From assembly GCA_965213735.1 (NCBI GenBank), contig CBDCAB010000005.1, forward strand, positions 279,134 through 343,133: a DNA stretch of 64,000 bases, given 5' to 3'. This document shows positions 4,874-21,465 of this stretch, in pieces. Source of the DNA: Saprospiraceae bacterium (GTDB lineage: Bacteria; Bacteroidota; Bacteroidia; Chitinophagales; Saprospiraceae). Below the pieces are notes generated by a model. It made no database searches, was not told where the DNA came from, and saw only the letters and a program-made list of their open reading frames with translations. The translations under genes were made by a program, and so were the position numbers. The stretch's first letter is position 1. Each line of letters begins with the position of its first letter.

Positions 4874-6577
4874 ATGCAACTGAAATCTACAATAGGAACC
4901 CTTCTGGCTGCAGCCGTACTCGTGCTCGCCACTCCTGCCCTCGCTCAAGACCTTAACTACAAGCAAGCTGATGACTTTGCGGATTGGCTCGTCGCCGACG
5001 GGCAGTTTAGCAAAGCTGCTGGCCTATACGCTGAAGCTTTCGAAGAGCGTGCACGTAACGTGTATGCATACAAAGCTGCCGAATTGTACTTCTACGTGAA
5101 GAACTACGCGAAAGCTGCCAAATTTTATGAGGCTGTCGCCAAAGCTACCAGCGACTATCCCGATGCACGTCTTAAGTATGCGCGCTCTCTCAAGCGGATG
5201 GGCAACTTTGAGGATGCACTCACGGAATACACCAACTTCACCAAAGGCTACGTGGCCGCTGATTCGGCTACTATGCGCCAGCGCGTCAACGAAGAAACTG
5301 CAGGCGTAGAACTTGCTCTCGCTGAAAAGAAACGCGTGGACCCAACCATCTTCGTCGACCGTATCAGCGCCGTGATCAACGGCATGAAAAATGAGATTGC
5401 GCCGCAGATCATGGCTGATGGTTCACTTACGTTTATCAGCGACTTCGATGGCACCATGCGCGCATATTCGAGTGAGCGTGCGGGTAATGCCTGGACGCAG
5501 ATGCGACCTTCACCAGCCTTACCTGTGCTCGAAGATGGCGGCCATATTGCTGGCGGCACCCTCGTCAGTAAAGATCGCTATGTGTTTGGCCTTTGTCCAG
5601 CGACAGAATTTATGGCGCAGCCTGCGGTAAGATGCAGCATTCAAGAAATTACTCGCCGCGGCGGTGAATGGGGCGCACCCAGAGCGATTGCTGGCAACAT
5701 CAACGTGGAGGGAGTTAGCTCAACACACCCTTTCATCTTCGAAGCTGATGGCAAGGAAGTCATGATCTTTGCCAGCGATCGCCCCAACGGCTTTGGCGGC
5801 TTGGACCTGTGGAAGGCAGAGCGTAATCTTGGTTCTGACGTTGCGCTTTATGGTACTCCCGTCAATCTCGGTGCTACTGTGAATGGCCCCGGTAACGAGG
5901 TTACTCCATTTTTTGATCAAGAAACGCGCATCCTTAGCTTCTCGAGTGATGGAGGAATCACGCTCGGCGGCTACGATGTATTTCACGCAACAGCAACCGA
6001 AGGGATTGGTGGGTGGACGACAGCCATCAACCCCGGCACGCCCATCAACTCTACTGCCGACGACTACCATTACCGCACCGTGCCAGGCACTACCAAAGCC
6101 TTTTTAGCTAGCAACCGCAGCGAAGACCTGAGCCGCACCATCATGACCAATGATGATCTCTACACGGTGAGTTACAGCTACCCAAATATTGCGGTCGAGC
6201 TAATGATCGTCGATGATGCCACAGGCGAAGCGGTCAGTGATCCGACGCTCACGGTGAGTCTCAATCCCGATGGTTTTGAGCTCAAGCCGATGATTGTGCG
6301 CCGCAGCCTCGATGGCTTCTTTAAGTTCTCGCTGCCAACAGATCGGGATGTGACGCTCGACGTGATTCGCCCATACTTCGACGACAGCAATTTAACGATC
6401 CGCATTCCAAACGGCGAGAAAGACGGTTTTCAGGTTAAGCCTATCCGCATCGACCGCACACCTGTTGGTGATGACGATGTGCAGGTTGTTGCGCGCGTCC
6501 GCCGCCCCGGCTCTACACCCGAGCGCGTTGAGCGTGAGGTGATGACAGCCACTGGAGAAGAGGAGGAGGGGCAGTAA
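4874..6577 (+). CDS. Secreted TPR plus PD40 (TolB-like beta-propeller) repeat protein
   Basis: An internal Met at 4874 gives a signal peptide (MQLKSTIGTLLAAAVLVLATPALAQ). TPR-like helices follow, with PD40-type motifs FASDRPNGFGGLDLW and FSSDGGITLGGYDVF. Confidence 0.7.
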   Translation: MQLKSTIGTLLAAAVLVLATPALAQDLNYKQADDFADWLVADGQFSKAAGLYAEAFEERARNVYAYKAAELYFYVKNYAKAAKFYEAVAKATSDYPDARLKYARSLKRMGNFEDALTEYTNFTKGYVAADSATMRQRVNEETAGVELALAEKKRVDPTIFVDRISAVINGMKNEIAPQIMADGSLTFISDFDGTMRAYSSERAGNAWTQMRPSPALPVLEDGGHIAGGTLVSKDRYVFGLCPATEFMAQPAVRCSIQEITRRGGEWGAPRAIAGNINVEGVSSTHPFIFEADGKEVMIFASDRPNGFGGLDLWKAERNLGSDVALYGTPVNLGATVNGPGNEVTPFFDQETRILSFSSDGGITLGGYDVFHATATEGIGGWTTAINPGTPINSTADDYHYRTVPGTTKAFLASNRSEDLSRTIMTNDDLYTVSYSYPNIAVELMIVDDATGEAVSDPTLTVSLNPDGFELKPMIVRRSLDGFFKFSLPTDRDVTLDVIRPYFDDSNLTIRIPNGEKDGFQVKPIRIDRTPVGDDDVQVVARVRRPGSTPERVEREVMTATGEEEEGQ

Positions 6578-6600
6578 GATTCATTTTTTTGAAGTTTGTT

Positions 6601-6640
6601 AAGCCGCATCCTGAGTTTTGGGGTGCGGCTTTTTTGTTTG
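6601..6640 (+). terminator. Rho-independent terminator after the PD40 gene
   Basis: AAGCCGCATCC / GGGGTGCGGCTT stem (one G-T pair) with an 8-nt loop, followed by TTTTTGTTT. Confidence 0.8.
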
Positions 6641-6955
6641 GGGCTTCAGCGCAACTTGGGATAGCTGTGTCATTTTGAGGAGTGCTGAAAATATTGGGCG
6701 ATTTAATCCGGCCACAAACAAGATCTAAGCACGCAGGCCACGAGTCCCGGGTAAATCCTAGCCTCTGAGCGCTTAGACATAGATCCTCCCTTTTAGGATT
6801 GATTCCAGCTGCGTAGCTGCGTCGTTCAAAGGAGCCCTGGATTTATCCGGCGACTGTACGGACAAATGTGCTCAACTTGGCCGGAATCAGCTGCACCTGT
6901 GCCTCGCATTTGCCCAAAATACCCTATCTCGCAGCTATACATATGCCCCCTGATC

Positions 6956-8401
6956 ATGTTTGAGCAGACCTTCAAAAACATCGACGACCTGCTGTACAAG
7001 GACGCCGGTGCCGACTCCGAATTGGACTACATCGGCCAGACGAGCTGGGTACTCTTTCTACGCTACCTGCACGACCTGGAGGCTGAACTCGCTGATACGG
7101 CAGCACTCGAAGGGCGCGAGCACAGCTACATCCTCGATGAGGAGTACCGCTGGAACAGCTGGGCTATGCCGCAGCGCCCCGACGGCAGCTACGACAAGAA
7201 TGAGGCGCTGGCGGGTGACGATCTGATTGATTTTGTAAAGGAGGAGCTGTGGCCATATCTAGCCGACTTCAAGGACGAAACCAGCGATACACAGACCATT
7301 GAGTATAAAATCGGGGAGATCTTCTCGGAGCTGGAGTTCAAGATTAAAAGTGGATTCATCCTGCGCGAAATTTTGGAGTACGCAGATGAGCTGCCCTTCA
7401 AGTCGAGTAAAGAGAAGCACGAGTTGAGCCATCTCTACGAGACCAAGATTAAGAATATGGGCAATGCCGGTCGCAACGGCGGCCAGTACTACACGCCCCG
7501 CCCTTTGATTCGGGCTATGATCAAGGTGATTGACCCAAAGTTGGGCGAGCGCATCTACGATGGTGCGGCGGGTAGTTGTGGATTTCTCTGTGAGGCTTTC
7601 GAATACTTACAACCACAAGTGAAGTCGACCTCCGATCTGGAGACGCTACAAGAGCGGACGCTGTACGGTAAAGAGAAGAAAAACCTTGCCTACGTGATCG
7701 GGACGATGAACATGATCCTGCACGGCATTCGTGCCCCCAACCTACGGCGCGTCAATACGCTGAGTGAGGACGTGCGTCAGGTCCAGGAGAAAAATCGCTT
7801 CGACGTGATCCTTGCCAATCCGCCCTTCGGCGGGAAGGAGCGCAAGGAAGTGCAGCAAAACTTCGACATTAAGACCGGTGAGACGGCTTTTCTTTTTATG
7901 CAGCACTTCCTGAAGATGCTGCGGACGGGTGGAAGGGCTGCTGTGGTGATTAAAAATACATTCCTATCGAATTCCGATGCTAGTGCCTTAAGGAAGTTAC
8001 TGCTCGAAAGCACGCAACTGCACACCATTCTGGATATGCCCGGCGGCACTTTTCAGGGTGCGGGTGTGAAGACAGTGGTACTTTTCTTTGAAAAGGGCGA
8101 GCCTACCCGCAAGATTTGGTACTACCAGTTTGACCCGGGCAGAAACATGGGTAAGACCAATCCGCTCAACGATGAGGATTTGCAGGATTTCTTGCGGCTT
8201 GCGCCAAAACACGAGGACTCGGACAAGAGCTGGACAATTCACGTCAACGACGTCGATCAGGACACCTATGACCTTAGCACTAAGAATCCGAATGCACCAG
8301 AACCTGCGCCCCTTCGTGCACCCGCTGAAATTCTCGCTGAGATGGAGCAGCTAGACGAAGCGACACGGAAGTTATTGGGGGAGTTAAAGGAGTTGATATG
8401 A
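6956..8401 (+). CDS. hsdM: Type I restriction-modification system, DNA methyltransferase subunit
   Basis: Motifs GQYYTPRPLI, DGAAGSCGFL (AdoMet motif I) and NPPFGG (motif IV). The stop overlaps the hsdS start (ATGA at 8398-8401). The start is chosen at the internal Met (MFEQTFKNIDDLLY). Confidence 0.93.
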   Translation: MFEQTFKNIDDLLYKDAGADSELDYIGQTSWVLFLRYLHDLEAELADTAALEGREHSYILDEEYRWNSWAMPQRPDGSYDKNEALAGDDLIDFVKEELWPYLADFKDETSDTQTIEYKIGEIFSELEFKIKSGFILREILEYADELPFKSSKEKHELSHLYETKIKNMGNAGRNGGQYYTPRPLIRAMIKVIDPKLGERIYDGAAGSCGFLCEAFEYLQPQVKSTSDLETLQERTLYGKEKKNLAYVIGTMNMILHGIRAPNLRRVNTLSEDVRQVQEKNRFDVILANPPFGGKERKEVQQNFDIKTGETAFLFMQHFLKMLRTGGRAAVVIKNTFLSNSDASALRKLLLESTQLHTILDMPGGTFQGAGVKTVVLFFEKGEPTRKIWYYQFDPGRNMGKTNPLNDEDLQDFLRLAPKHEDSDKSWTIHVNDVDQDTYDLSTKNPNAPEPAPLRAPAEILAEMEQLDEATRKLLGELKELI

Positions 8402-9621
8402 GTCGGTGGGAGGTGAAAAAGCTTGGAGACCTGTGCAATATACAACTTGGCAAAACGCCTGCGAGGCGAAATCCAAAATTTTGGGATGCTAAACACCAAT
8501 CAGATAATGTTTGGATATCAATTGCTGACATGAGGCATGGTGAGGTGCTAAGCACGTCAAAAGAGAGACTTACGAGGCTTGGCGCTGCCGAATGTAAAGT
8601 CACTCCACGTGGCACATTACTTTTAAGTTTCAAACTAACTCTAGGGCGAGTAAGTTTTGCAGGACGTAACCTATATACAAATGAAGCAATTGCATCGCTG
8701 CTAAATTTGAAGGTTGATAAGAACTACTTATTTTATTACTTTAGTCATTTTGATTGGATGCGCGCGACCGAAGGCGACCATAAGATAAAAGGCAGGACAT
8801 TAAACAAAGCTAAGTTAAAAGATTTATCTATCCCAGTCCCGCCCCTCTCTGTCCAGCGCGAGATTGTGGATCGCTTGGATGCTGCTTTTGCGTTATTGGA
8901 TAAGGCGGAGGCGAATGTTCGGCGGTGTATTGAGTTGGCGGAGGAGTTGTGGGAGGGGGTGTTGGAGAGTTTATTTGATGCAAAAGATGAGAGGTGGATT
9001 GAGACTGATCTTTCATGCTTATTGAGAAAGAAATACATAATAGATCACATGGATGGAAATCATGGTGGGAACTATCCTCGTAAAAGCGAATTCGTCTTAT
9101 CGGGAGTACCATATTTAAGTGCCAAGAATATTAAAGATGGTCATGTTGATTTCTATGAGGCGAAGTTTCTTTCATATAAAAGAGCAGCTAAACTTAGAAA
9201 AGGATTTGCAAAGAATGGAGATGTGTTATTTGCTCATAATGCTACCGTAGGCCCCGTAGCTATTCTGAACACGGATTATGAAGTGTGTGTTCTTGGGACA
9301 TCGCTTACCTACTATCGCCCTAACCTAAGTTATGTACTGCCTGAATACCTTGCAGCCTACATGCGTAGTCCGCTATTTGTGAGACAATACAATCAAGTTA
9401 TGCGTCAATCAACCAGAAACCAAGTGCCCATCACAAAACAACGCACTTTTACTTTCCTCATCCCACCGCTGCAGGTCCAGAGGAATATGCTCACAGCTTT
9501 GGTGGCATTCTATCGACGTGTTCAAATCATTAAATCAAGCTATAAGGTTCAAGCTCAAAATATATCCGTACTACGAGCTTCAATCCTGGGGCGTGTTTTT
9601 AGTCAAGAACTAATACCCTAA
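8398..9621 (+). CDS. hsdS: Type I restriction-modification system, specificity subunit
   Basis: Two AT-rich variable halves are separated by conserved helical spacers: PPLSVQREIVDRLDAAFALLDKAE centrally and PPLQVQRNML...LRASILGRVF at the C-terminus. The gene is translationally coupled to hsdM. Confidence 0.9.
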   Translation: MSRWEVKKLGDLCNIQLGKTPARRNPKFWDAKHQSDNVWISIADMRHGEVLSTSKERLTRLGAAECKVTPRGTLLLSFKLTLGRVSFAGRNLYTNEAIASLLNLKVDKNYLFYYFSHFDWMRATEGDHKIKGRTLNKAKLKDLSIPVPPLSVQREIVDRLDAAFALLDKAEANVRRCIELAEELWEGVLESLFDAKDERWIETDLSCLLRKKYIIDHMDGNHGGNYPRKSEFVLSGVPYLSAKNIKDGHVDFYEAKFLSYKRAAKLRKGFAKNGDVLFAHNATVGPVAILNTDYEVCVLGTSLTYYRPNLSYVLPEYLAAYMRSPLFVRQYNQVMRQSTRNQVPITKQRTFTFLIPPLQVQRNMLTALVAFYRRVQIIKSSYKVQAQNISVLRASILGRVFSQELIP

Positions 9622-9633
9622 ATAATCATCTGG

Positions 9634-10548
9634 ATGCGAGAACGAGCACCGAACGTTACGATGAACTCAGTGGCGCTATATTATGACAATTCACTAATAT
9701 CAAATCCCGACAATTGGTTTAGTGAATTCAATTATTTTACGAATAGCGGAGCGTTTAATCTTTTCTGTATCAAGACACCCCATGAGCTTAAACTGCAAAT
9801 AGCTATAATACAAGAGCAAGCTTTGAAGGCAGATATAGGTGTCGCGTTAATATTTGAGTTCCATGGCTCGACGAAAGGTCTTCATATTGGAGATGAAATA
9901 CTTCATTGGGATGAGCTGGCGATAGTACTGTGTCAGCTTAATCTCGCCTGTAGGAATCAAGTTTATTCACTATTCGCGACCTGTTTTGCTTCTCAACTTG
10001 GCATTGAGTTTCAAGACCCCCCGAAAATGTTTATCGTAGGAGAAGTAAGGGCACCAATTAACTTCGCAGTATTCCCTGAAGAAGAATTTTATGAATGGGA
10101 AGTCGAAGAATTCGTGCATCCGTTCATCAAACGGTGGCTATCTGGCGACAAGTCTAATATGGACGATTTGTTTACGAAAATCTTTGCAACCAGGGGCGAC
10201 AGGAATGTTTGTTGGATAAATTGCTATGGTCAATGGGATACTCTGCGTCAAAAAACTTATAAAATGTTAAATCAGAAAGTGCTTGGTAATTGGGCTATAT
10301 TGAATCAACACTTGCGTAGTCAGAAAATTAACATTCAGAAAAGAATTGGCCGATGCCCTAGAGCTAAAGATTATAGAGAACATAAATCACAAATTTTGAA
10401 AATTGAGTACTATAAGTTGCTATTATCACAGATCTTCGACCAATTTTTTATGATCGATGTATATCCAGAAAATGCTACGAAATATATTCCTGATCAAGAT
10501 TATTCTGATATCGAATTTCTGATTCTACTGCATAATAATCAATCCTAA
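9634..10548 (+). CDS. Hypothetical protein with a candidate caspase/CHAT-like His...Cys dyad
   Basis: 304-aa AT-rich ORF starting 13 nt after hsdS on the same strand. The segment LIFEFHGSTKGLHIGDEILHWDELAIVL...VYSLFATCFAS fits the strand-HG ... strand-x-C-x-S pattern of the caspase-hemoglobinase fold. The start could instead be at 9661. Confidence 0.55.
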   Translation: MRERAPNVTMNSVALYYDNSLISNPDNWFSEFNYFTNSGAFNLFCIKTPHELKLQIAIIQEQALKADIGVALIFEFHGSTKGLHIGDEILHWDELAIVLCQLNLACRNQVYSLFATCFASQLGIEFQDPPKMFIVGEVRAPINFAVFPEEEFYEWEVEEFVHPFIKRWLSGDKSNMDDLFTKIFATRGDRNVCWINCYGQWDTLRQKTYKMLNQKVLGNWAILNQHLRSQKINIQKRIGRCPRAKDYREHKSQILKIEYYKLLLSQIFDQFFMIDVYPENATKYIPDQDYSDIEFLILLHNNQS

Positions 10549-10594
10549 CGTAAGCGATAGTCCTAATGTGTGAGATTTTTGAATTTTGTAAATC

Positions 10595-11500
10595 ATGAAC
10601 AGAGAATGGTTAGAGAAAGCTATCAGGGAACTCCCTCACTTTGCGGCGCTGAGTGAGGAAGATGCTAAAGAAAATTCTAGTGATTGGTTGAAGCTTATTG
10701 AGAGTTTTAAAGCTGTTACGGATCAATACCTTGATAACAGTCGTCAACAGATGCAGGATATCTTGATGAGGAACTCAGAATTTCCACTACTTTTTAGTTT
10801 ATCCATAAGTTATCATCATTATCTATTCACGTATTTTATAGAGAAGGCAGGAAGTGACAAAGATACTGAACGTCCAATGTTCTATGCCGGGTCTCTTATG
10901 GCCTTGGCGCTTGAGCATCATGTAAGTTTGTATAACTTAATGATCAGAGGACTTGAAAGCTCTGCTCGGATACTGTTCCGAGCCTTGATTGAAGTGTATG
11001 ATTTAGTACTATGTGTGAGTCAGGATGAGGAATTCATGCAAAATTACACTAAAATTCGAATGGACCACGAAGGGATTGATCATATAATTCCAATGAAGAC
11101 GGGTAGTATTGACCGAGCAGTAAATCGAATACTTCATCGAATTGATCTTGACCCCGATAAATTCTTTACCAAATTGAGGAAAAGTGTTTACAAAGATCTC
11201 TCAGACTTTGTACATGTGTCAGCCGACACGGTTGTGATGTCTGTAATGCAAAATCATATTGACAACGAATCGAGCTCTAGGCAGTTTCGTCCGGGAGGAC
11301 TGCATACCAAAACTACTAAAACCTTTTATCTAAGCGTATTGAATTATTCTTCGCACTTCGTATCGCTTGCGTGTAGTAATTTAGTCAAATCTAAATATCT
11401 TTATTTTGACGAGGATGATATCCAATTACGGGCAGCCAGAGAAGCGTTGAACTTAGGCATTGAACTGCAGCTTAAGTGGGTGGCTAGCTTAAAGCTGTAG
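10595..11500 (+). CDS. Hypothetical, predominantly alpha-helical protein
   Basis: 301-aa AT-rich ORF, co-directional with and 46 nt downstream of the previous gene. I recognise no catalytic motif. Confidence 0.55.
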   Translation: MNREWLEKAIRELPHFAALSEEDAKENSSDWLKLIESFKAVTDQYLDNSRQQMQDILMRNSEFPLLFSLSISYHHYLFTYFIEKAGSDKDTERPMFYAGSLMALALEHHVSLYNLMIRGLESSARILFRALIEVYDLVLCVSQDEEFMQNYTKIRMDHEGIDHIIPMKTGSIDRAVNRILHRIDLDPDKFFTKLRKSVYKDLSDFVHVSADTVVMSVMQNHIDNESSSRQFRPGGLHTKTTKTFYLSVLNYSSHFVSLACSNLVKSKYLYFDEDDIQLRAAREALNLGIELQLKWVASLKL

Positions 11501-11884
11501 TGCCTCGCGTGGGATTCCAGCCTTTACTAACTAGCGACCTCGACCACATAAACAGTCTCTGCTCCAACTCCCGTAGCGTCAACTCCCCCTTTTGCGCCAG
11601 CAGATATTGCCGGTACTCCTCGTAGCCGCACGCAGTCCAGGTGCCGAGGTAAAGGTTCGTGCCACCGAGCGCGCGTACGCTGTGTCGATCCATGACTGCA
11701 TGCACGTTAGGATTGACGAAAGCCATTATCGCGCTGGCCACTGAGATGCCCACTCCAGCCAGGGCAGTGAGCGTATGTACGGCCAGATAAGGCTCCTGTA
11801 GAGAGAGTGCTAAGGAAGGGATGTATTCTACTTCTGCTTCTGTATTGCGCTCCACCTTACTCTTTGTACGTGGTGACTTCCAGG
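11484..11884 (-). pseudogene. 5'-truncated duplicate of the HhH-GPD/OGG-fold gene at 12554-13072
   Basis: Positions 11538-11884 align without gaps to 12575-12921, with about 34 mismatches in 347 nt by manual count. Homology stops at the WKSPRTKSK codons and an in-frame TAA lies just upstream, so about 50 N-terminal residues are missing. Confidence 0.7.
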
Positions 11885-12110
11885 TAGAAAAAGCTTAACG
11901 TCGGCTTTGCCTAATAGGCTAAGGGCGAAAAAGCGCTTGGTTATGGACTTAAACTGGTTAGGAGTGCTGTGTTCGCGCCACACGAAGCAGGAGTACAATT
12001 CGCGAATAACAGCAGCGAGCGTGATGTTTGATCGCTACATCGCTCTCACATGAGAATACTGTGGAGGTTCTCTGTCTAGATCGTACCTTGCAACTCCTAA
12101 AACAAAAAGT

Positions 12111-12497
12111 ATGGGACTCGATTTACTAGCTACATTCAGCGTAATCAAGAAGGAGTCCGTTGCGGACTCTGCAAGTATGATCCAACCGATGATGGTCCCC
12201 GACGAAATCATAGAGCTCGTCTATGCAAGCGTGCGTGACAAGGTATGGTTTACGAACAAGAGACTGATAGCGCTTGACGTACAAGGATTAACCGGCAAAA
12301 AGAAAGAATACCGTTCTTTTCCTTACAGTAAGATTTCCTCATTATCCGTTGAGACCTCTGGCACATTTGATTTTGACGGAGACTTTAAAATCTGGGTTAG
12401 CGGTGTTGGCGTCTTTGAAATCAAGTTTTCGAAGCGCCTTAACATCGCCGAGGTGGGAAATTATATGAGTTTAAAATTGCTTTCTCCTGAGGTATAA
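12111..12497 (+). CDS. Bacterial PH-domain (YokE-like bPH) protein
   Basis: 128 aa. The pattern VWFTNKRLIALD...EYRSFPYSKISSLSVETSGTFDFDGDFKIWVSG is typical of small bacterial pleckstrin-homology-like proteins. Confidence 0.7.
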   Translation: MGLDLLATFSVIKKESVADSASMIQPMMVPDEIIELVYASVRDKVWFTNKRLIALDVQGLTGKKKEYRSFPYSKISSLSVETSGTFDFDGDFKIWVSGVGVFEIKFSKRLNIAEVGNYMSLKLLSPEV

Positions 12498-12553
12498 GAG
12501 TGAGCCCAGGATAGTTCTCGTATTGGCTTGGAAATGAGTTAGGTAACCTTCTG

Positions 12554-13072
12554 TTACAACTTCCCCATCTCCCCCCTCGACCACATAAACAGTCCCTGCT
12601 CCAACTCCCGCAGCGTTAACTCACCCTTTTGCGCCAGCAGATATTGCCGGTACTGCTCGTAGCCGCGAGCAGTCCAGGTGCTGAGGCGCATATTCGTGCC
12701 ACCGAGGGCACGTACGCTGTGTCGATCCATGACTGCGTGCACGTCAGGATTGACGAAGGCCATGATCGCGCTGGCCACTGAGATGCCCACACCAGCAAGG
12801 GCAGTGAGCGTATGCACGGCCAGATATGGCTCTTGTAGAGAGAGTGCTAAGGAGGTAATGTGATCTACTTCTGCTTCTGTATTGCGCCCTGACTTACTCT
12901 TTGTACGCGGTGACTTCCAGGCGATGAGGGCGCGCAGGTCGTCTTTGGTGAGGTGGGTGACTTTGTGTAGGCGGTCGTTGAGAGCTAAATATTCAGCTTC
13001 GCTGCGGTAATCATACCTGGAGGCTAGCTCCTTCAATTCAGATAATCCGGTTGGGATTTGAAATAGCATCAT
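12554..13072 (-). CDS. HhH-GPD-like (8-oxoguanine glycosylase OGG-fold-like) protein
   Basis: 172 aa. The helix-hairpin-helix LTALAGVGISVASAIMAF is followed by VMDRHSVRAL, which parallels LPGVGRKTANVVL...AVDTHIFRV of endonuclease III-type glycosylases. Confidence 0.65.
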   Translation of the reverse strand: MMLFQIPTGLSELKELASRYDYRSEAEYLALNDRLHKVTHLTKDDLRALIAWKSPRTKSKSGRNTEAEVDHITSLALSLQEPYLAVHTLTALAGVGISVASAIMAFVNPDVHAVMDRHSVRALGGTNMRLSTWTARGYEQYRQYLLAQKGELTLRELEQGLFMWSRGEMGKL

Positions 13073-13590
13073 GATCGAGAGACTGGAGAATCAGCAGTAC
13101 TACCCTCTACATCCTCAAAGCTAAGCGCATTTAATAAGGGGCTGTAGTTGTTCTTAAACTCTTCAACTGATTTGAGCTCAGGGTGAAACCTTACCCAAGA
13201 AACATCATTGATCCAGGTGCTACAAAAGTTGCTTATCCAGACTGATGGTATGATGTATACGTCTGGTTGCATGGTAAGACCCGCTGCGCTTTGAAGATCA
13301 ACAAATGCAAAAAATAGATTTTCGGAGTTGACGGTTGCTGCTTTATGTCCTAAGGCAAATTCAAGATGGTGCGGAGCCTTAGCCTTGCCACGGCCTCGCG
13401 TACGCATAGCCCAATCAGCCGTCTTTACCTGAACAGAAAGCGACTTTGTACCGTCTGGATTTGAAGCAAGCAAATCAACAGTGGGTGAGCCACCTCGCGG
13501 TAAAGCGACGACAAGGCCGAGGCAACACATTTGATAGGCAACAAAGTGCTCGCCTGCTGCGCCGATTAAGTTTGCTGGTAATTTGGACAT
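13069..13590 (-). CDS. PD-(D/E)xK endonuclease-like protein (PDDEXK_5 / Hjc-like pattern)
   Basis: 173 aa. GAAGEHFVAYQMCCLGLVVALP....VDLLA.......LSVQVKT gives the E ... D ... Q-x-K arrangement. Its stop overlaps the start of the HhH gene by 4 nt. Confidence 0.65.
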   Translation of the reverse strand: MSKLPANLIGAAGEHFVAYQMCCLGLVVALPRGGSPTVDLLASNPDGTKSLSVQVKTADWAMRTRGRGKAKAPHHLEFALGHKAATVNSENLFFAFVDLQSAAGLTMQPDVYIIPSVWISNFCSTWINDVSWVRFHPELKSVEEFKNNYSPLLNALSFEDVEGSTADSPVSRS

Positions 13591-14142
13591 GGTCTTTGAG
13601 CTTGACGCATATTACGCAAATAATCCCACCTCCTCGCCAAATTCAGTCCATCGCGCAAGCGCTCCCTCGACATGGCGATGCTCAAGCATTCTACGCTTAC
13701 GGTTAGACCACTCTACCGCTTTTTAAGTGATGTCTTGCACTGATGTCGCGCCGAGTATGACGTGCAAATAATCAACAGTTGCCAGCACCTCCAACGAAAA
13801 ATTGAATTCAAAACCGATAATGAGTGCCTGGAGTCGAGGTAATCGGTCTTGCTCTTGAACATCGAGGATATTCGTCGCACCTGCCCCATAAGTTCGATAT
13901 ACCTTACGCGTATCGCGTTACATAAGTAATAGAATAGCGGTCCTATTCCTCTATAATTGCGTTGGGCCGGTGTGCCTGTTAGGGAGCAATAGTGTGGACC
14001 TCGTGGCAGGGGTTGTGGCCGCGGGTGCTATCGGGTATTCCGATAGTGTAAAAAGTTCGCTCCCTAATATCAGGTTTGTAAAGGTTGACGGCCTCAAAGG
14101 TTTGAATGTTAAAGCTTTAGGGGAATTACATAGATCCCTTCA

Positions 14143-15270
14143 TTAGCTAATAGGTATGTTATCTGGTTTTAGCGGAACCTTTGCAAACAGCATCTCTTCT
14201 ATACTATCGTAGTGGTCTGGCTTAACGAAATTCGACGTAAGATCAGAAATCCTTCCAAGTTCGCGAGCACTTATCTGATAAACATTGCCCAAAATTAAGT
14301 CCTCAAGCTTTTTACAATGACCGTCCGACCATTCATTGTCGTTTCGTAAATTAGGATAGGAAGGAAAGAGAACGCAGTTTAATCCACGATCTTCACCAAA
14401 AGCTTGTACTGAAGAGTACTGGATTCCTACGAGTGGTGTGGCAGAGGTAGAGAAGGACATAATCTCTTTTTGCATGACTAGTTTCGCAATAGCATTAGGT
14501 ATGACATAGTACAGTTGATACCCGTAGGAGGCGTCACCCCTGTCTCCTGAATTAATGAACGTCGTATGGCAGAGAAGCCGTAAGGGTAGTGTGAGTAGCT
14601 CTCCAAGCCATATCAGTAGATCTTCCTTGCCGCTAATCTGGCGATCTAGGTCCCCATCTAACGATAAGTCCAGCAGTAACAGATCGCGGCGTGCTTTAAA
14701 TGCAGCTAAGTTACAGTAGTCAACATCGGCTTTGATCCTTTGCTTAGGTAAGAGGTATTTCACCTGGCCACATTCCTTTATAGCAGTAGCAATCGTTGTC
14801 GCCAGATAAAGTGAAGTAACTCCATCGGACGAGTAGCGGGTCTGACGAACTTTGTGTTGGAGTTGAATAGGTACGTGAAATATGGCCTTACGATCTTTGT
14901 CTTTGATAGATTTAACAGCCCCCATATCCCTTCGAATACGATAAAAGGGGCCATCTCCGCGCTTAATTTCTTGAACCAGACTGTTTCTACTCCCCGCTTT
15001 GCTCAGGGACTCAAACATGGATAGTAGCAGCATTTGAATCGCCGAGTCATTTGCAAGGCGTACGTACCCCAGTAGTTCGACGCACGCCTGTACCTGAGTG
15101 TTCAAGCTCGTCCGAATTTTGGACAATAGAACTATGTTGTCTTCATCCTCGTGTTTAGCAATTTCTTCTACCGCTGCACTCTGAAATCGCCTTACATGGC
15201 TCTCAAGCGAGCGAAAGTACTCCCGTCCAGGCTCAAAGGATAGAGGTTTGGCAAATTCAGAAAGCAGCAA
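14143..15270 (-). CDS. RES-domain protein with a long N-terminal helical extension
   Basis: 375 aa. RQTRYSSDGVTSLYLATTIATAIKE supplies the R and E motifs. GIQYSSVQAFGEDRGLNCVLFPS supplies the S motif. Both match the RES family pattern. Confidence 0.6.
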   Translation of the reverse strand: MLLSEFAKPLSFEPGREYFRSLESHVRRFQSAAVEEIAKHEDEDNIVLLSKIRTSLNTQVQACVELLGYVRLANDSAIQMLLLSMFESLSKAGSRNSLVQEIKRGDGPFYRIRRDMGAVKSIKDKDRKAIFHVPIQLQHKVRQTRYSSDGVTSLYLATTIATAIKECGQVKYLLPKQRIKADVDYCNLAAFKARRDLLLLDLSLDGDLDRQISGKEDLLIWLGELLTLPLRLLCHTTFINSGDRGDASYGYQLYYVIPNAIAKLVMQKEIMSFSTSATPLVGIQYSSVQAFGEDRGLNCVLFPSYPNLRNDNEWSDGHCKKLEDLILGNVYQISARELGRISDLTSNFVKPDHYDSIEEMLFAKVPLKPDNIPIS

Positions 15271-15299
15271 AGCAGAAAGGGATGTAGAAAATATACATG

Positions 15300-15962
15300 C
15301 TATGATTCGCCAGCAGGAGCTTGCTGTGCTTTAAGGTACAAGCAGAGCATTCTCCACCAGGCGGCATTGCTAAACACCATTAGGTCTGAGCTACTGAGTG
15401 AGTACGCGACTAGGTGCAAGTGCTCTTGCAGAATATTCATGGGGTACCCCTTATAGCTTACTTCGCTATTGAGTTCCTCTAAACTGACAAGTCGATTTAT
15501 CCACGGTTCGAGTATTAATTTCCAGCCTTCCCACCCATGCAAAAAACTTACAGCGACGTAGAATCCAAAGTGGGCGTTTAGTAATGATTCGAACGAGCGT
15601 TGCTGATCACTTAGTTCGCTTTCGACGTCGTAGCTAAAGATGTAAGCGTGGCTTACGGTGAGTTCAATACCGGAGAGAATCTTGAAAAGCTGCGTGTGCA
15701 CGCGACTAGATGATGTGCCATCACTATTTTCTGCTGGACTAACAAGTGGAGCAATCTGGCTGTCGCGCATTTCCCAATAGAAGTCATTCATCACCTGGCT
15801 TGCATTCACTAGGTAGGAGAGATTTGTGCCCGCCTCGTGTGTAGTTTGCAACAAACCGTTGCGCAATAACTGCGGTATATGGTCGGACACATAGCTATTG
15901 AGTACCGCTTCAAAGAATACCCTCCGATCTTCTCGAGTCTTTTGATCGTCTGCCGAAACCAT
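15300..15962 (-). CDS. Hypothetical protein, middle gene of the RES operon
   Basis: 220-aa ORF. It starts 3 nt after the upstream gene and ends 29 nt before the RES gene. No motif recognised. Confidence 0.5.
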   Translation of the reverse strand: MVSADDQKTREDRRVFFEAVLNSYVSDHIPQLLRNGLLQTTHEAGTNLSYLVNASQVMNDFYWEMRDSQIAPLVSPAENSDGTSSSRVHTQLFKILSGIELTVSHAYIFSYDVESELSDQQRSFESLLNAHFGFYVAVSFLHGWEGWKLILEPWINRLVSLEELNSEVSYKGYPMNILQEHLHLVAYSLSSSDLMVFSNAAWWRMLCLYLKAQQAPAGES

Positions 15963-15965
15963 TCC

Positions 15966-16298
15966 CTATGAGCGCTTCGCGCCTTTCGCTTTTGTCTCCA
16001 CGGCCCGTCTCAGCACGTTGCCTGGGTTCGCTTCCAACGAGACGCCTGTACGTAGGAGAACCCTATCGTTATCGAAATGAAGAGCCTCTTTACGAACGGT
16101 AATCTTAGCAGATTCTCGCTTCCATGCCTGACGTGTTTCAGCCTCCTCGTTTGGGTACGGCTTAGTAAGGTCAACCCGCTTATAGCTAGTTGGCGTCGGT
16201 CCTCTTGCAATGAGGCGCTCCTGCCATACGGCTGTAGTATTCTCCTTGAGTTCGTCCATGTCAGATCGTTTTCTACTGGTAGTAGAAAGCGGGCGCAA
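15966..16298 (-). CDS. Small hypothetical basic protein, first gene of the RES operon
   Basis: 110-aa ORF. An alternative start at 16259 (MDELKEN) gives 97 aa. It is tightly spaced with the next gene and rich in K/R/E. Confidence 0.4.
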   Translation of the reverse strand: MRPLSTTSRKRSDMDELKENTTAVWQERLIARGPTPTSYKRVDLTKPYPNEEAETRQAWKRESAKITVRKEALHFDNDRVLLRTGVSLEANPGNVLRRAVETKAKGAKRS

Positions 16299-16447
16299 AG
16301 GTAACCGGATTCGTCACAAGAACGAAGCCAAACCTATCAAGTATTGCCTATCTCTACGGTATCCGCGTTTGTCGCGGATATGTTCAGGGGAACAAAGCTG
16401 AAATCTACACATTGACAGCTTATTTCTCCGTATCGTGTAGAAAAATC

Positions 16448-16463
16448 TACCGTACGTACGGTA
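16448..16463. promoter_or_regulatory. Perfect 16-bp palindrome TACCGTACGTACGGTA in the divergent RES-operon/hsdR control region (candidate operator)
   Basis: The sequence is self-complementary and lies about 70 nt upstream of the hsdR ATG. Two further 7-bp inverted repeats sit nearby: ATCCGCG/CGCGGAT at 16361-16379 and TCTACAC/GTGTAGA at 16404-16441. Confidence 0.3.
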
Positions 16464-16533
16464 AGTAGCCCCCCGTTTTGCCGAAAGGCACCAAACCCTC
16501 AAACCTCCTACCTTCGTACCATACCCGCAGCGA

Positions 16534-18909
16534 TTGCGTATCTCCGTGAACGAATCCCAAACCCGCCAAGACCTAGTTACTCCAGCCCTCAGAGCAGCTG
16601 GATGGGAAACCGTGCCCGGCAGCAGAATTCGCACTGAATTTCCTGTCACTAACACGACAAAGCCTGGCGAACGCAACTACCGACAACTTTCTGCTGATTA
16701 CGTCCTCATTTATAAAAATAGGATGCTGGCCGTAGTCGAGGCAAAAGCGCGAGATACGTACTATACTAACGGGCTGGGCCAAGCCAAGGATTATGCCAAG
16801 CGTCTTCAGGTGCGCTACACCTATGCTACCAATGGTCGGCGCTTCTACGAAGTAGACATGGAGGAGGGCCAAGAAGGGGACGTTCAGTCTTTCCCCTCGC
16901 CCGATGAACTCTGGGAGCGGACGTATCCAAGTCCGACATCAGCGCAACCTTACAAGCAGGAGATCGTCGACTGGAAGACTCGGCTCTTCGAAGTTCCGTT
17001 TGAGAGCCAGGGGGGCAAGTGGCAGTTGCGCTATTATCAAACCAACGCAATCAACGCCGTGCTCGACCGCATTGCCGAGAAGCATCAGCGCGTGCTGCTT
17101 ACCCTAGCTACCGGCACCGGCAAAACCGCGATCGCCTTTCAAATTGTTTGGAAGCTTTACCAGGCAAAATGGACGCTGCGCCGCGATGCCAAACGCAGTC
17201 CACGGATTCTGTTTCTTGCCGACCGTAACATCCTTGCCGACCAAGCCTTCAACAGCTTCAGTAATGCCTTTGCCGAGGACGCCCTAGTGCGCATAAGCCC
17301 TGCTGAAATCAGTAAGAAAGGCCGCGTCCCCACTAACGGTGCCGTATTCTTTTCCATCTTCCAGACCTTCATGTCGGGGCCTGACGACAGTCCCTACTAC
17401 ACACATTATGAACCTGACTTTTTCGATTTCATTATTGTGGACGAGTGTCACCGGGGAGGCGCCAACGACGAGAGTACCTGGCGCGATATACTCGAGCATT
17501 TCAGTCCTGCGGTACAGCTAGGCCTCACCGCCACCCCCAAGCGCGACGAAAACGTCGACACCTACAAGTATTTCGGCGACCCGGTGTACACCTATGCGCT
17601 CAAGGAAGGCATCAACGACGGGTTTCTTACACCTTTCCGCGTACAGATGATCACTACGACGATGGATACCTACACGTTCTCTGCCGACGATGATGTCATT
17701 GAAGGGGATATTATCGAAGGTCGCGAGTACACCGAGTCAGAAATAAATCGCATTGTTTCCATTAAAGCTCGCGAAGAGTTTAGGGTACGTCGTTTTATGG
17801 AGCTTATAAACCAAAATCAAAAGACGCTCGTGTTCTGCGCCAACCAAGAACATGCTGCGGCCATTCGCGATCTCGTTAATCAACACAGCGATAGCCTCAA
17901 CCCCAACTACTGTTGTCGCGTCACCGCCGATGATGGCAGCAGAGGTGAGAAGCACCTGCGAGATTTTCAGGATAATGAGAAGCGAATCCCGACAATCCTT
18001 ACGACTTCGCAAAAATTAAGTACCGGAGTTGATGCTCCCGAGATCCGCAATATTGTGCTACTCCGTCCTATCAACAGTATGGTTGAGTTTAAACAAATAG
18101 TAGGTCGTGGCACTCGCCTGTATGATGGTAAGGATTACTTCACCCTATACGATTTCGTGAAAGCTCACGAGCATTTCAAAGATCCTGAATGGGATGGTGA
18201 TCCTGTCGAACCTGAACCGTCCTATCCAATTGAGCGACCGAAGGTTGGGGATGAAGGTCTCGTTAGGGATCCTGTACAAGCCTTGTGTACGGAGTGTCAG
18301 CATGAGCCCTGCCTGTGTGAGGAAGGTCCGCGTGTCATGACCCGCATTCGCCTCTCCACGCAACGTGAGCTGGCTATAGATTCTATGATTAACACTTCTT
18401 TCATGAGTGCGAGTGGTATACCGATTACTTCGAGCGAATTTATTCAGCAGCTATTTGGTGATCTACCTCAGTTTTTTAAAAGCGAGGAAGATCTGCGGCT
18501 GATTTGGAGTGATGCCAATACGCGCAAGCAGTTGCTGGAGCAGATGGCGGAAGTTGGCTACACTAACTCACAACTTGAAGAGCTACGTAAGTTGGTGCAT
18601 GGTACAGACAGCGACCTTTACGACGTGCTCAAGTACGTAGCCTACCAACGGGATATGGTTTCGCGTCGTCAGCGTGCGGCTTTCGCCAAAACCCGTTGTG
18701 CAGGTAAATACTCAACGGCGCAGAATGAGTTCTTAGACTTTATTCTGGATCAATACATTGAGGGTGGGGTAAGCGAATTAGACGGTGACAAGCTGTCAAA
18801 ACTTCTGAAACTAAAGTATAAAAGTATACCCGACGCAAAGAAGAGCTTGGGCCCAGTAGAACTGATCCGTGACACCTTCCTTGGCTTTCAGGGCGGGCTG
18901 TATGGATAA
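16534..18909 (+). CDS. hsdR: Type I restriction enzyme, R (endonuclease/translocase) subunit, EcoEI-like short form
   Basis: N-terminal NESQTRQDLVTPALRAAGW. SF2 motifs LATGTGKT, DECHRGG and QKLSTGVDAP. An EcoEI-R-type C-terminal tail is present (FLDFILDQYIEGG...). Confidence 0.93.
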   Translation: MRISVNESQTRQDLVTPALRAAGWETVPGSRIRTEFPVTNTTKPGERNYRQLSADYVLIYKNRMLAVVEAKARDTYYTNGLGQAKDYAKRLQVRYTYATNGRRFYEVDMEEGQEGDVQSFPSPDELWERTYPSPTSAQPYKQEIVDWKTRLFEVPFESQGGKWQLRYYQTNAINAVLDRIAEKHQRVLLTLATGTGKTAIAFQIVWKLYQAKWTLRRDAKRSPRILFLADRNILADQAFNSFSNAFAEDALVRISPAEISKKGRVPTNGAVFFSIFQTFMSGPDDSPYYTHYEPDFFDFIIVDECHRGGANDESTWRDILEHFSPAVQLGLTATPKRDENVDTYKYFGDPVYTYALKEGINDGFLTPFRVQMITTTMDTYTFSADDDVIEGDIIEGREYTESEINRIVSIKAREEFRVRRFMELINQNQKTLVFCANQEHAAAIRDLVNQHSDSLNPNYCCRVTADDGSRGEKHLRDFQDNEKRIPTILTTSQKLSTGVDAPEIRNIVLLRPINSMVEFKQIVGRGTRLYDGKDYFTLYDFVKAHEHFKDPEWDGDPVEPEPSYPIERPKVGDEGLVRDPVQALCTECQHEPCLCEEGPRVMTRIRLSTQRELAIDSMINTSFMSASGIPITSSEFIQQLFGDLPQFFKSEEDLRLIWSDANTRKQLLEQMAEVGYTNSQLEELRKLVHGTDSDLYDVLKYVAYQRDMVSRRQRAAFAKTRCAGKYSTAQNEFLDFILDQYIEGGVSELDGDKLSKLLKLKYKSIPDAKKSLGPVELIRDTFLGFQGGLYG

Positions 18910-19044
18910 GTACAAGCGTTCATGTAACTCGCCTCCGTGGCCTTCTTCCCTGCTCATCCTTTCATATGTGCGAAGTTGTGGTGAGCTGCCAGCGCTCTTG
19001 CTGCCACACGCGCGAGTAGGTGTTGGTGCGATTGGCCTCGAAGC

Positions 19045-19335
19045 CTACCCCTCACGTCTTAGCATAGGAATAGGCCGTGTATAAATGGCATCGTGGAGAG
19101 GCGTGATCCTCTTTCTTGTTCTAGTAATAATTGGTCTTTGACCAACTAGGTGGGTTTGCGCGAGTGTGGTCTTGCCGACTTGCCGCGGGCGGAAGATGCC
19201 TTCGGCGGGAAATACACCGAATAGTTTGCTGATTTCTTTTATGGCATCTTGTTGGATCACAATGTTGCAAAATAGAGAGCCGAGCTTGTAAGCTGCCAAC
19301 CCTTTAGAGTAATATTTAAGCATTTGTGTGATCAA
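19045..19335 (-). pseudogene. Remnant of a COG1373-type AAA ATPase (N-terminal fragment only)
   Basis: The P-loop RPRQVGKTTLAQ is typical of DUF4143-associated ATPases. The ORF ends about 35 codons after the P-loop. Confidence 0.45.
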
Positions 19336-19503
19336 TGGACGCAGAGGCTGTTTTAAATGAAGTGCGCCTCAGCTTTTGTATGTTGTTCAGCATGCATTAG
19401 AGCGCTGTATATCTACACCAAAGGCTTCAAGAGAAGAGGTTAGTACAAGAAACTCAAAGAATGCCTCTCATTACGAGGAAATCCTTTTGCCCACTGGAGA
19501 AGT

Positions 19504-20118
19504 CTAATTATTAATATACTTCTCGAACACCTCACTAAAGTCTTTACGGACATAGTTATCATATGCCTCGGTAAGCCAATCGTGGATGTAGGTGGTGAGC
19601 TTGGGTAAATCTTCGGCCTTGCTGGAGGCGCTGGTGCGGGCATTACCCAGGACGCTGACGGCTTGTGAGATACTTGTCTGAGCCCGCTCGTGTTTGGTCA
19701 TGTTGGAGCTGACCTCTAAAGAGATGGCGTAGAGGGCTTTGTACAGGTCTGCCAGTTGTGTAGACTGTCTTTTATCGACATCGACACTGAAAGCCATTTC
19801 TCCGATGCTGAACTTAATTTCGGCGTCCAAGTCTACTGTACCAGCCGTTTCAAGCGCTACATTACTTATGGGTGTTTTGTAAAATTCGTAGCGACGCAGG
19901 GTTCGTTTGCTAGAGATAGCGGACTCACCATCTACGTGAATCAGTGCTCGATTGGTAAAGCAGTATTCGTCCTTTTTACTTTTGATGAGAAAGTAAATTT
20001 TCTCTCCATCTTCATGGAGAACATAATCATCGGCCTCTACTTTATCGTAGTCCGCCGGTGAGACAATGCGCCCGATATCGGAGATGCCTAGGGCTTCGGC
20101 AGCGAGTTTCTTGAACAT
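19504..20118 (-). CDS. YvbH-like bacterial PH-domain protein with a helical C-terminal extension
   Basis: 204 aa. The pattern is YCFTNRALIHVDGESAISSKRTLRRYEFYKTPISNVALETAGTVDLDAEIKF followed by a helical tail. Confidence 0.7.
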   Translation of the reverse strand: MFKKLAAEALGISDIGRIVSPADYDKVEADDYVLHEDGEKIYFLIKSKKDEYCFTNRALIHVDGESAISSKRTLRRYEFYKTPISNVALETAGTVDLDAEIKFSIGEMAFSVDVDKRQSTQLADLYKALYAISLEVSSNMTKHERAQTSISQAVSVLGNARTSASSKAEDLPKLTTYIHDWLTEAYDNYVRKDFSEVFEKYINN

Positions 20119-20414
20119 GAAGGGAATGTAAGTCGGCTGGTAGGTGGTGTGGTAGCCTTCCTTGAGCTATTTCCACATCATCGTCAACAAAAGTGATTCG
20201 AGCAGCTTCGACGGTGTAAGCGCTTCTCGACGTGTAAACAAAAACCCGTTTTTTTACAGGTCATGACACAGGTGCACAAGCTTCCTCTTAACTACGACTT
20301 CGAGACATCGGCCATCCTCCGAGCTACTATTGTAACGGCACCTTGATAGAATCGTTCTAGCAGACCTGCTTTGTTAGCCACGTTGCTTAGATACCAGCCC
20401 TTATCTTTACCAAC

Positions 20415-21059: not shown

Positions 21060-21180
21060 AAGCTCGGGGCGTAAAAATACCCGCTCGGACATGGCAGTAC
21101 CTATCGGCACCTGGATGAAGTTGTGGGGGCCGACCAGATTTGTGAGGCACATTACTGATCTCAGCCGTTTTCTATACCAG

Positions 21181-21227
21181 CATGCCCATAGCCAGCTTGC
21201 TTACACCACTTTACTGTATCGACCCGA
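21181..21227 (+). repeat. Duplicated 5' end of a Uma2 gene (remnant)
   Basis: 47 nt match 20414-20460 with 6 mismatches, including the ATG and MPIASLLTP codons. Homology is then lost. Confidence 0.6.
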
Positions 21228-21465
21228 CTTGTCCTTAAATGTTTACACTGGTCAATTGCAACAAAGCTTTGCAAAGTCTTCTAACCTACCTTTGCAAAGA
21301 GTGAGCAAGACGCCTGCTTTTGGAGGGCTTGCAAGTGGCTGGAATACAGTCACTTATATCGCTTGCTTGCAAAGTGTTGTGCAACTCACTGAAATTTTTT
21401 GCAAAGTCTGAGGTAGGTTTATGACTTCTTGCACCGCCTTCCGCTCACTAGACATTCGAGTCGCC

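Follow-up and report, generated by a model that had tools for sequence, protein, structure and literature searches.

Why should the restriction gene of a type I restriction-modification (R-M) system lie several kilobases away from its modification and specificity genes, and what are the genes in between? The question is raised by a locus of a Saprospiraceae bacterium (assembly GCA_965213735.1, contig CBDCAB010000005.1, positions 279,134 to 343,133), a stretch of 64,000 nucleotides (nt) that is referred to here as the window. In this locus, hsdM and hsdS are separated from hsdR by a set of cargo genes. The best explanation, and one we consider probable, is an intact type IB R-M system with a variable cargo slot at its hsdS-hsdR junction. 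The core of the first-pass annotation of this DNA, a single cognate type I system split by nested cargo, thus holds. The architecture of such a slot is already known, but its individual passengers are uncatalogued candidates.

All three hsd genes lie on one strand (+) and are full length compared to family models or homologues. The ATGA overlap between hsdM and hsdS (8398-8401) that had been claimed for this locus is borne out by direct reading of the sequence, as is the same-strand position of hsdR, with 6.9 kb between the hsdS stop and the hsdR start. HsdM is 80-84% identical to its counterparts in the related loci L001, L076 and L080 (residues 1-481), and its start at 6956 is consistent with these homologues; an upstream ATG at 6866 is unsupported. 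For hsdS, the nucleotide-level alignment with L001 is confined to the central conserved region. HsdR scores 780.9 bits (cutoff 550; E-value 1.5e-234) against the NCBIfam model NF046051, ‘EcoAI/FtnUII family type I restriction enzyme subunit R’, over model positions 2-767 of 768, i.e., full length. It also matches the Pfam domains HSDR_N, ResIII, Helicase_C and EcoEI_R_C, starts with either TTG at 16534 or GTG at 16546, and is 74% identical to HsdR of L001 and 86% to that of L041, where the comparison covers the HsdR N-terminus. The locus hence reads as one type IB (EcoAI-family) R-M system with all three genes intact, which likely restricts unmethylated DNA. Phase-variable shuffling of hsdS was considered and rejected, as there is neither a second hsdS copy nor any inverted repeat within hsdS.

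The distance of 6.9 kb could also mean that hsdR is not the partner of this hsdMS pair, either because two unrelated or partial systems happen to share one strand or because a split R-M locus is decaying. In line with such a separation, hsdR must carry its own promoter in a divergent intergenic region of 235 nt. A search with HsdR, limited to one genome per species, yielded 37 loci. In more than 20 of these, HsdM and HsdS homologues are encoded upstream in the order M-S-R (tblastn), and the identities of HsdM and HsdR to the window proteins co-vary over 24 loci (Pearson r = 0.95). The closest overall match is L001, a Lewinellaceae metagenome-assembled genome (HsdM 80%, HsdR 74%). Because of this synteny and correlated divergence, hsdR is regarded as cognate to hsdMS, and the three genes appear to belong to the same system; the origin of hsdR from a different R-M system, which the first-pass annotation had kept as an alternative, is excluded on the same grounds. 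Decay or a split is contradicted by the full length of hsdM, hsdS and hsdR, and no second fragment of any of them occurs among the open reading frames (ORFs) of at least 100 amino acids (aa) in window positions 1-26000. Altogether, an unrelated hsdR is highly improbable.

Are hsdS and hsdR adjacent elsewhere? Among the relatives, the gap between both genes ranges from approximately zero to 6.6 kb. It measures just a few bases in L002, L017, L018, L024, L026 and L027, and 6.6 kb in L001. Where the gap is filled, its Pfam content varies: DarT and Macro (together DarTG) in L001, KAP_NTPase in L010, ABC-3C CTD10 and DUF2326 in L011, GmrSD_N and DUF4145 in L015, and PDDEXK_3 in L009. SLFN_AlbA_2 and HATPase_c_4 are present in both ORFs of that type that were scanned (L005 and L016), look-alikes in other loci being recognized by eye only. 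In L029, L023 and L032, YhcG and ORF6N sit between hsdM and hsdS. The junction is thus a variable cargo slot, which is empty in some related genomes and holds different defence or toxin-antitoxin genes in others. A variable hsdS-hsdR junction has been described before (Jankevicius 2016, PMC5179494; Payne 2024, bioRxiv 10.1101/2024.01.29.577857; the RptR island, PMC12255303). In the RptR-RMS-DarTG island of enteropathogenic Escherichia coli, the site is termed a ‘potential recombination hotspot’ (PMC12255303), a type I R-M cluster of Vibrio cholerae carries the embedded TgvAB (PMC11411939), and Payne et al. systematically surveyed type I R-M loci by ‘guilt-by-embedding’ (bioRxiv 10.1101/2024.01.29.577857). 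The features by which these authors define embedding are also found here: the hsd genes are co-stranded, none of them is a pseudogene, eight ORFs lie between hsdS and hsdR, and none of these is recognizable as a mobility or housekeeping gene.

Table 1. Features of the R-M locus, in window positions, followed by the gene orders of five related loci; in the latter, < denotes the strand opposite to hsd and d-orf172 a truncated orf172 copy.
Feature	Coordinates	Strand	Basis or gene order
hsdM, type I R-M methyltransferase subunit, 481 aa	6956..8401	+	Pfam N6_Mtase (3e-59), HsdM_N
hsdS, specificity subunit with two target-recognition domains, 407 aa	8398..9621	+	Pfam Methylase_S (1e-28), two stretches
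orf304, predicted clan CD (caspase/legumain-fold) cysteine protease with C-terminal helical domain	9634..10548	+	Family alignment, AlphaFold2, Foldseek
orf301, DUF5677-like protein	10595..11500	+	Pfam DUF5677, below cutoff
Truncated orf172 copy, 3' part, homologous from about codon 48	11484..11894	-	300-nt repeat
bPH128, bacterial PH-domain protein	12111..12497	+	Pfam bPH_1 (7e-35); between truncated and full orf172
orf172, Ogg2-like HhH-GPD DNA-glycosylase-fold protein, 172 aa	12554..13072	-	Profile search, AlphaFold2, Foldseek
orf173, conserved upstream partner of orf172	13069..13590	-	Homologues beside orf172; 4-nt overlap with orf172
darG pseudogene remnant, last 84 codons, in-frame stop	13615..13866	-	tblastn
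RES375, divergent RES-domain protein	14143..15270	-	Pfam RES, above cutoff
orf220	15300..15962	-	29 nt upstream of RES375; operon-like packing only
orf110, weakly supported ORF, 110 aa, TTG start	15966..16298	-	Ends 3 nt upstream of the orf220 start
hsdR, intact EcoAI-family (type IB) restriction subunit	16534..18909	+	NCBIfam restrict_EcoAI
Locus L076 (HsdM 84%)			hsdM-hsdS-[caspase-like, 67% to orf304, 12-nt gap]-202 aa-<155-like-<76 aa-<HNH-like 221 aa-<AAA_15/21 ATPase
Locus L080 (HsdM 81%)			hsdM-hsdS-[caspase-like, 9-nt gap]-244 aa-<d-orf172-297 aa-<orf172-339-aa family-<DUF4276-<AAA_21
Locus L001			hsdM-hsdS-[DUF5677-like]-<155 aa-<d-orf172-297 aa-<orf172-<orf173-<DarG-<DarT-hsdR
Locus L041 (HsdR N-terminus 86%)			hsdS-[caspase-like, ATGA overlap]-<133 aa-339 aa-<orf172-<111 aa-<76 aa-<HTH 85 aa-<DarG-<DarT-hsdR
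Locus L077			hsdS-[caspase-like]-<155-like-<orf172-339-aa family-<DarG-<DarT

The interval between hsdS and hsdR was described at first pass as AT-rich, with seven ORFs plus a truncated duplicate in three transcription units. The first point is correct (9634-16533 has a GC content of 45.4%, compared to 54% upstream and 52% downstream), with an uneven distribution across the locus: 42% in hsdS, 37.5% in orf304, 39.5% in orf301 and 54% in orf172. The duplicate is also present, but the ORF count has to be raised to eight of at least 110 aa, orf110 being the additional one, and instead of three transcription units there are four co-directional blocks, transcription units being derived here from gene spacing alone. 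The first block, orf304-orf301, begins just 12 nt behind hsdS and probably belongs to the hsdMS transcript. Shortly before orf304, the 3' end of hsdS contains a weak terminator-like hairpin (9577-9592); if functional, it would attenuate read-through from hsdS into the cargo, though the number of such hairpins is within chance expectation. A scan for sigma-70 promoters and terminators returned fewer sites than, or no more than, shuffled sequences and is uninformative, because Bacteroidota promoters differ from the consensus. Most cargo ORFs are real genes, since homologues or domain matches exist elsewhere; for orf220 and orf110, the support consists of ORF length and packing only.

Ten cargo and adjacent proteins, including orf304 and orf301, were scanned with PADLOC v2 (E ≤ 0.1), which includes the phage defence candidate (PDC) models of Payne et al. 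(bioRxiv 10.1101/2024.01.29.577857). Two marginal matches were obtained, of orf301 to PDC-S52 (E-value 0.006) and of orf172 to PDC-M40B (E-value 0.023). The earlier remark that no cargo gene belongs to a named defence system is therefore valid as far as PADLOC is concerned, but it misses the RES domain and the darG remnant as well as the decay of part of the cargo. No transposase, integrase or metabolic domain is present among the cargo (Pfam, NCBIfam and PADLOC scans). There are no tRNA genes, no Rfam matches occur in 6000-22000, and neither an integrase or transposase nor a long direct or inverted flanking repeat delimits the insert; a classical integrative element was therefore rejected.

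Among the passengers, orf304 is the most interesting one. Its family comprises 49 representative clusters (exhaustive HMMER search), and an alignment of 32 sequences shows H77, G78, N103, C117 and P141 to be invariant, with a conserved FFMIDLYPEN-like motif at the C-terminus. While orf304 itself has no Pfam match, 12 of these 32 relatives match Peptidase_C13 (best E-value 2.8e-5), and none of the 32 matches a PADLOC model. The AlphaFold2 model built from this alignment has a predicted local distance difference test score (pLDDT) of 89.8 and a predicted TM-score (pTM) of 0.86. When the PDB was searched with Foldseek, caspases or legumain made up 49 of the 50 best hits (probability 0.96-1.00), with target-normalized TM-scores of about 0.3-0.54. 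The protein is hence predicted to be a cysteine protease of clan CD that carries an additional helical domain. A metagenome scan of the wider family, started from 13 sequences, added 31 more distant loci. Their neighbourhoods include DruE (Druantia), type IIG and type III R-M, AIPR, AbiU, PDC-S22 and PIN, as well as Fic with a helix-turn-helix (HTH) protein, HEPN, RelA_SpoT, NERD, WYL and dCTP-deaminase-like proteins. The family sits in a defence-island context, and orf304 can be regarded as a new defence candidate, representing an hsdS-coupled caspase-like subfamily. The objection, foreseen at first pass, that the cargo families are not enriched near defence genes fails for both families that could be checked, the orf304 family lying among such defence genes in a hand-picked set of neighbours and orf172 beside DarTG or ABC-ATPase modules. 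A conserved two-gene system of orf304 and orf301 was rejected, because no recurrent partner gene is found among the family neighbours in the 31 distant loci.

A tight recurrent link to hsdS is, among the cargo, observed for the caspase-like gene only. Look-ups of cargo homologues identified five loci of the same island type as the window (L001, L041, L076, L077 and L080), and relatives of orf304 directly follow hsdS in the latter four. The distance between hsdS and the orf304-type gene is 12 nt in the window and in L076 and 9 nt in L080, and the genes overlap by ATGA in L041. One possibility is that orf304, and perhaps orf301, is guarded like PrrC: HsdMS/R would keep it latent, and a phage anti-restriction protein would free it. 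Once released, the effector would either kill the cell or cleave a target in the phage or the host. The start of orf304 only 12 nt past the hsdS stop fits this idea, as does the presence of divergent relatives (23-67% identity) after hsdS in five out of six loci of the island type when the window is included; PrrC itself provides the precedent of an effector that is almost exclusively embedded in type I R-M loci (bioRxiv 10.1101/2024.01.29.577857, section 10). On the other hand, the PADLOC scan, of which the library presumably contains PrrC models, gave just the marginal PDC matches. Among the 31 distant loci, hsd-like genes occur solely near the duplicate pair L061/L062, and there downstream rather than upstream, and L001 has a DUF5677-like gene in the place of orf304. 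The five positive loci are moreover related, so that the adjacency to hsdS may be inherited. Dependence on the R-M complex is plausible for the caspase-like gene alone, and both the guard model and the release it entails seem improbable to us. It is equally doubtful that the hsdS-coupled caspase-fold protease represents a new type I R-M-dependent effector, i.e., a protease-built analogue of PrrC. Activation of such a protease would follow when the R-M complex is neutralized or stalls on phage DNA, and would lead to abortive infection.

Another passenger is orf172, whose family is rare, with seven homologues outside the window among 5.8 billion proteins. A profile search matches the Ogg of Methanocaldococcus jannaschii (PDB 3knt; E-value 6e-4), the AlphaFold2 model has a pLDDT of 85.7, and all 50 top Foldseek hits are glycosylases of the HhH-GPD (HhH, helix-hairpin-helix) type; the score against Pfam OGG (PF21790) is 17 bits, below the cutoff of 27. 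In the alignment with 3knt, the HhH (GVGxSVAS motif) and the position of the catalytic Asp (D116, at the IDRH motif) are conserved. The position of the catalytic Lys of bifunctional glycosylase/lyases is taken by an invariant Ser98 in the orf172 family. If an enzyme, orf172 is thus predicted to be monofunctional. Homologues of orf173 occur only as neighbours of orf172, directly upstream of it in L001, L038 and L039 (58-63% identity over the main aligned segments). Neither sequence nor profile searches gave a Pfam, NCBIfam, PADLOC or PDB match for orf173, and matches to the coronavirus 3C-like proteinase were dismissed as noise. A PD-(D/E)xK-like motif (Hjc-like E...D...QxK) is possible, though read by eye only, and its Lys is replaced by Gln in L001. 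The orf173 homologue has an in-frame stop in L038 (9504-9989) and a frameshift in L039 (3098-3573), where the block lies outside an R-M locus; these lesions reflect either decay of the partner gene or an assembly error, L039 being a contig of 2x coverage.

The neighbours of orf172 are DarTG or ABC-ATPase modules. It is located downstream of DarTG in L001, L038, L041/L042, L043, L044 and L077, with variable genes in between. The caveat that the same cargo might occur without R-M genes nearby applies in part, i.e., for the darT-darG-orf173-orf172 block alone: in L038, this block is approximately 80% identical at the nucleotide level to the nested block of L001, and no hsd gene is found within 10 kb. 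The darTG-orf173-orf172 module is for that reason considered autonomous and not R-M-dependent. Taken together, orf173-orf172 is likely a DNA-directed pair around a monofunctional Ogg-like glycosylase fold. Less probably, the pair is an accessory arm of DarTG-type systems, which would excise or process ADP-ribosylated DNA bases.

Two scars point to turnover of the cargo. The first is the truncated duplicate of orf172: 11538-11837 and 12575-12874 are 90% identical over 300 nt, the homology extends to 11894, and in-frame stops lie upstream. This copy is probably a pseudogene scar. Both L001 and L080 also have a full and a truncated orf172, around a gene other than bPH128, with copies that share about 90% identity within a genome compared to about 70% between genomes (window vs. 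L001). The second scar is the darG remnant, detected by tblastn with residues 267-350 of the L041 DarG (49% identity, E-value 5e-20), the alignment reaching the DarG C-terminus. An intact pair of DarT (PF14487) and macrodomain DarG is absent from the window, where no DarT signal is found and darG is reduced to this stub. An intact DarTG is encoded in L001, L038 and L041; L077 has both genes too, but the contig ends within its darT.

In the window, a RES-domain module lies between the darG remnant and hsdR. RES375 scores 26.6 bits against Pfam RES (PF08808; cutoff 23.2), with residues 139-209 covering profile positions 20-90 of 157, and its R, E and S motif residues were recognized by eye only. 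It is likely a toxin with NAD+-consuming or ADP-ribosylating activity, which orf220, by its position a candidate antitoxin or partner of RES375, would neutralize. No Xre/COG5642 (DUF2384) antitoxin signal was detected in orf220 or orf110, the latter possibly being the first gene of the module.

Of the remaining cargo, orf301 is named DUF5677-like only, because its score (19.0 bits) is below the gathering cutoff of Pfam PF18928 (DUF5677; 27.1 bits); its sole homologue, P0012 (46% identity), scores 26.8 bits and is encoded directly after hsdS in L001. A DUF5677 protein was found enriched near recombinase-marked defence islands (PMC12632615). A second bPH_1 gene lies just after hsdR (19504-20118, -), encoding a protein with a YvbH-like oligomerization tail that is 31% identical to bPH128. 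Further downstream, a direct repeat of 81 nt with 80% identity (21157-21237 vs. 20390-20470) duplicates the sequence upstream of a Uma2 gene (PF05685, PADLOC PDC-S03; 20415-21059) together with its first 15 codons, followed by a stop. Another rearrangement scar is thus present shortly after the R-M locus.

The six loci of the island type share a common syntax: a caspase-like or DUF5677-like gene after hsdMS, a variable middle part, and orf172...darG-darT on the opposite strand against hsdR. Within this syntax, modules are exchanged. The 297-aa protein between truncated and full orf172 is 97.6% identical in L080 (6417-7307) and L001 (5648-6541), whereas the genes after hsdS differ (caspase-like and DUF5677-like, respectively), which indicates module-wise mosaicism. 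Other insertions recur as well. An ABC-type AAA_15/AAA_21 ATPase (467 aa) and a Cys/His-rich protein of 221 aa are inserted at 535-2600 of L043, between DarG/HTH genes and orf172, and at 12734-14790 of L076, in the R-M cargo. The ATPase is 91% and its partner 70% identical between both loci, and the pair is Septu-like by architecture. A family of approximately 336-339 aa is encoded beside orf172 in L040 (8933-9940), L041 (4258-5277; no Pfam match), L044 (1688-2698), L077 (2895-3899) and L080 (7925-8971), occurs as fragments in L038 and L039, and is absent from the window.

How may such a locus have been assembled? Both scars in the cargo are 3' ends of minus-strand genes that lack their hsdR-proximal parts, a pattern that fits a series of replacements from the hsdR side. 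The cargo would have been built by repeated recombination with the conserved hsd genes as anchors, each event overwriting part of what was there before. A darTG-orf173-orf172(-bPH128) block may first have overwritten part of an older orf172. The RES module (orf110-orf220-RES375), the putative youngest layer beside hsdR, would then have displaced darT together with three quarters of darG. A separate acquisition, probably from the hsdM side, is suggested for the AT-rich hsdS-orf304-orf301 stretch. The functional roles of the R-M enzyme, orf304, RES375 and orf173-orf172 are inferred from domains and context: orf304 would be a caspase-fold protease with the residues His77 and Cys117, transcribed together with hsdMS, and would serve as an effector of abortive infection, either on its own or linked to the R-M system. 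Most likely, the modules act as distinct defence layers that occupy one locus and are exchanged as a group, and they probably do not form a single machine.

Alternatively, the passengers may be selfish or stabilizing, consisting of addiction toxin-antitoxin modules and hitch-hikers that are retained either for stabilizing the locus or because insertions are tolerated in this slot, and that do not contribute to phage defence. DarTG and RES are indeed toxin-antitoxin families, the two pseudogene scars testify to turnover and decay, the darTG-orf173-orf172 block also exists outside R-M loci, and bPH_1 proteins are not known to act in defence. For DarTG within type I R-M operons, Jankevicius et al. 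offered locus stabilization as an alternative (PMC5179494). Yet, the same slot in relatives holds experimentally supported defence families such as GmrSD, along with KAP NTPase and Schlafen, domain classes that were protective when tested, and the neighbourhoods of the caspase-like family are rich in defence genes. We consider a purely selfish cargo unlikely.

Several observations nonetheless weigh against a slot filled with defence modules. Beyond the two marginal PDC matches, no cargo protein matches a PADLOC model. The match of RES375 covers half of the profile only, and the protein has neither a homologue among the 5.8 billion proteins nor a PDB match; orf220 and orf110 are likewise devoid of homologues and of Pfam, NCBIfam and PADLOC matches, even at E-values up to 10. 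When tested, an Enterococcus faecalis DUF5677 protein was not among the phage-protective ORFs (PMC12632615). Because part of the cargo has decayed (the darG and orf172 remnants), some intact-looking cargo genes may be inert too. The recombination route is a reconstruction from scars. The neighbour scan of the orf304 family covers 34 hand-picked ORFs out of 61 and hence is not an unbiased enrichment test. Finally, the related loci all come from one lineage (apparently Saprospirales-like Bacteroidota), so that part of the recurrent adjacency reflects inherited synteny and does not count as independent evidence.

Genes embedded in type I R-M loci are a recognized source of new antiviral systems, and more than half of the surveyed embedded genes are unassigned. 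To these, the present locus adds candidates that are absent from PADLOC v2: a caspase-like family, a rare Ogg-like gene with a partner travelling with DarTG, and an orphan RES-domain module. As the closest orf304 members all directly follow hsdS, they offer a clean case for the question if an embedded effector is functionally connected to the R-M enzyme in the way of PrrC. The stubs of darG and orf172 form a readable record of slot turnover, and one-sided replacements anchored in hsd genes bear on the diversification of defence islands without dedicated mobility genes.

PrrC is an ABC-ATPase fused to an RNase (anticodon nuclease). In EcoprrI, it is the positional analogue of orf304, both being single effectors recurrently located inside a type I R-M locus. 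However, orf304 shares neither sequence nor domain similarity with PrrC, and its distant relatives are not R-M-linked. Membership of the PrrC type is not indicated for the other cargo either, as no ATPase domain is present and PADLOC gave no match beyond the two marginal PDC ones. Xre-RES toxin-antitoxin systems are exemplified by MbcTA, PP_2433-2434 and ParST. RES375 shares the RES match with them, along with a small upstream gene in the antitoxin position, but it is about twice the usual toxin size and matches the profile in part, while orf220 and orf110 lack an HTH, Xre or DUF2384 signal. With Ogg2/AGOG-type glycosylases (M. jannaschii Ogg, PDB 3knt/3fhf), orf172 has the fold, the HhH and the catalytic Asp position (D116) in common. 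It differs in having Ser98 at the position of the lyase Lys, in its shorter length (172 aa), in its pairing with orf173, and in its usual location downstream of DarTG instead of in a repair context. The RptR-RMS-DarTG-M48 island of enteropathogenic E. coli (PMC12255303; PMC5179494) resembles the window in that an intact type I system holds a module between its hsdS and hsdR genes, and the closest relatives of the window (L001, L041 and L077) carry DarT-DarG beside hsdR in the manner of DarTG-containing R-M loci. Unlike that island, the window has no DarT, keeps only a darG stub and has a RES-domain module in that position; its cargo is much larger (eight ORFs), is encoded on both strands, and shows no RptR-like regulator or M48 peptidase. 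The PDC loci of Payne et al. and TgvAB in V. cholerae VPI-2 display the same nesting of uncharacterized genes in an intact, one-strand type I R-M system. As the cargo of the window matches none of the PDC systems beyond the marginal PDC-S52 and PDC-M40B, its genes would be additional and rarer candidates.

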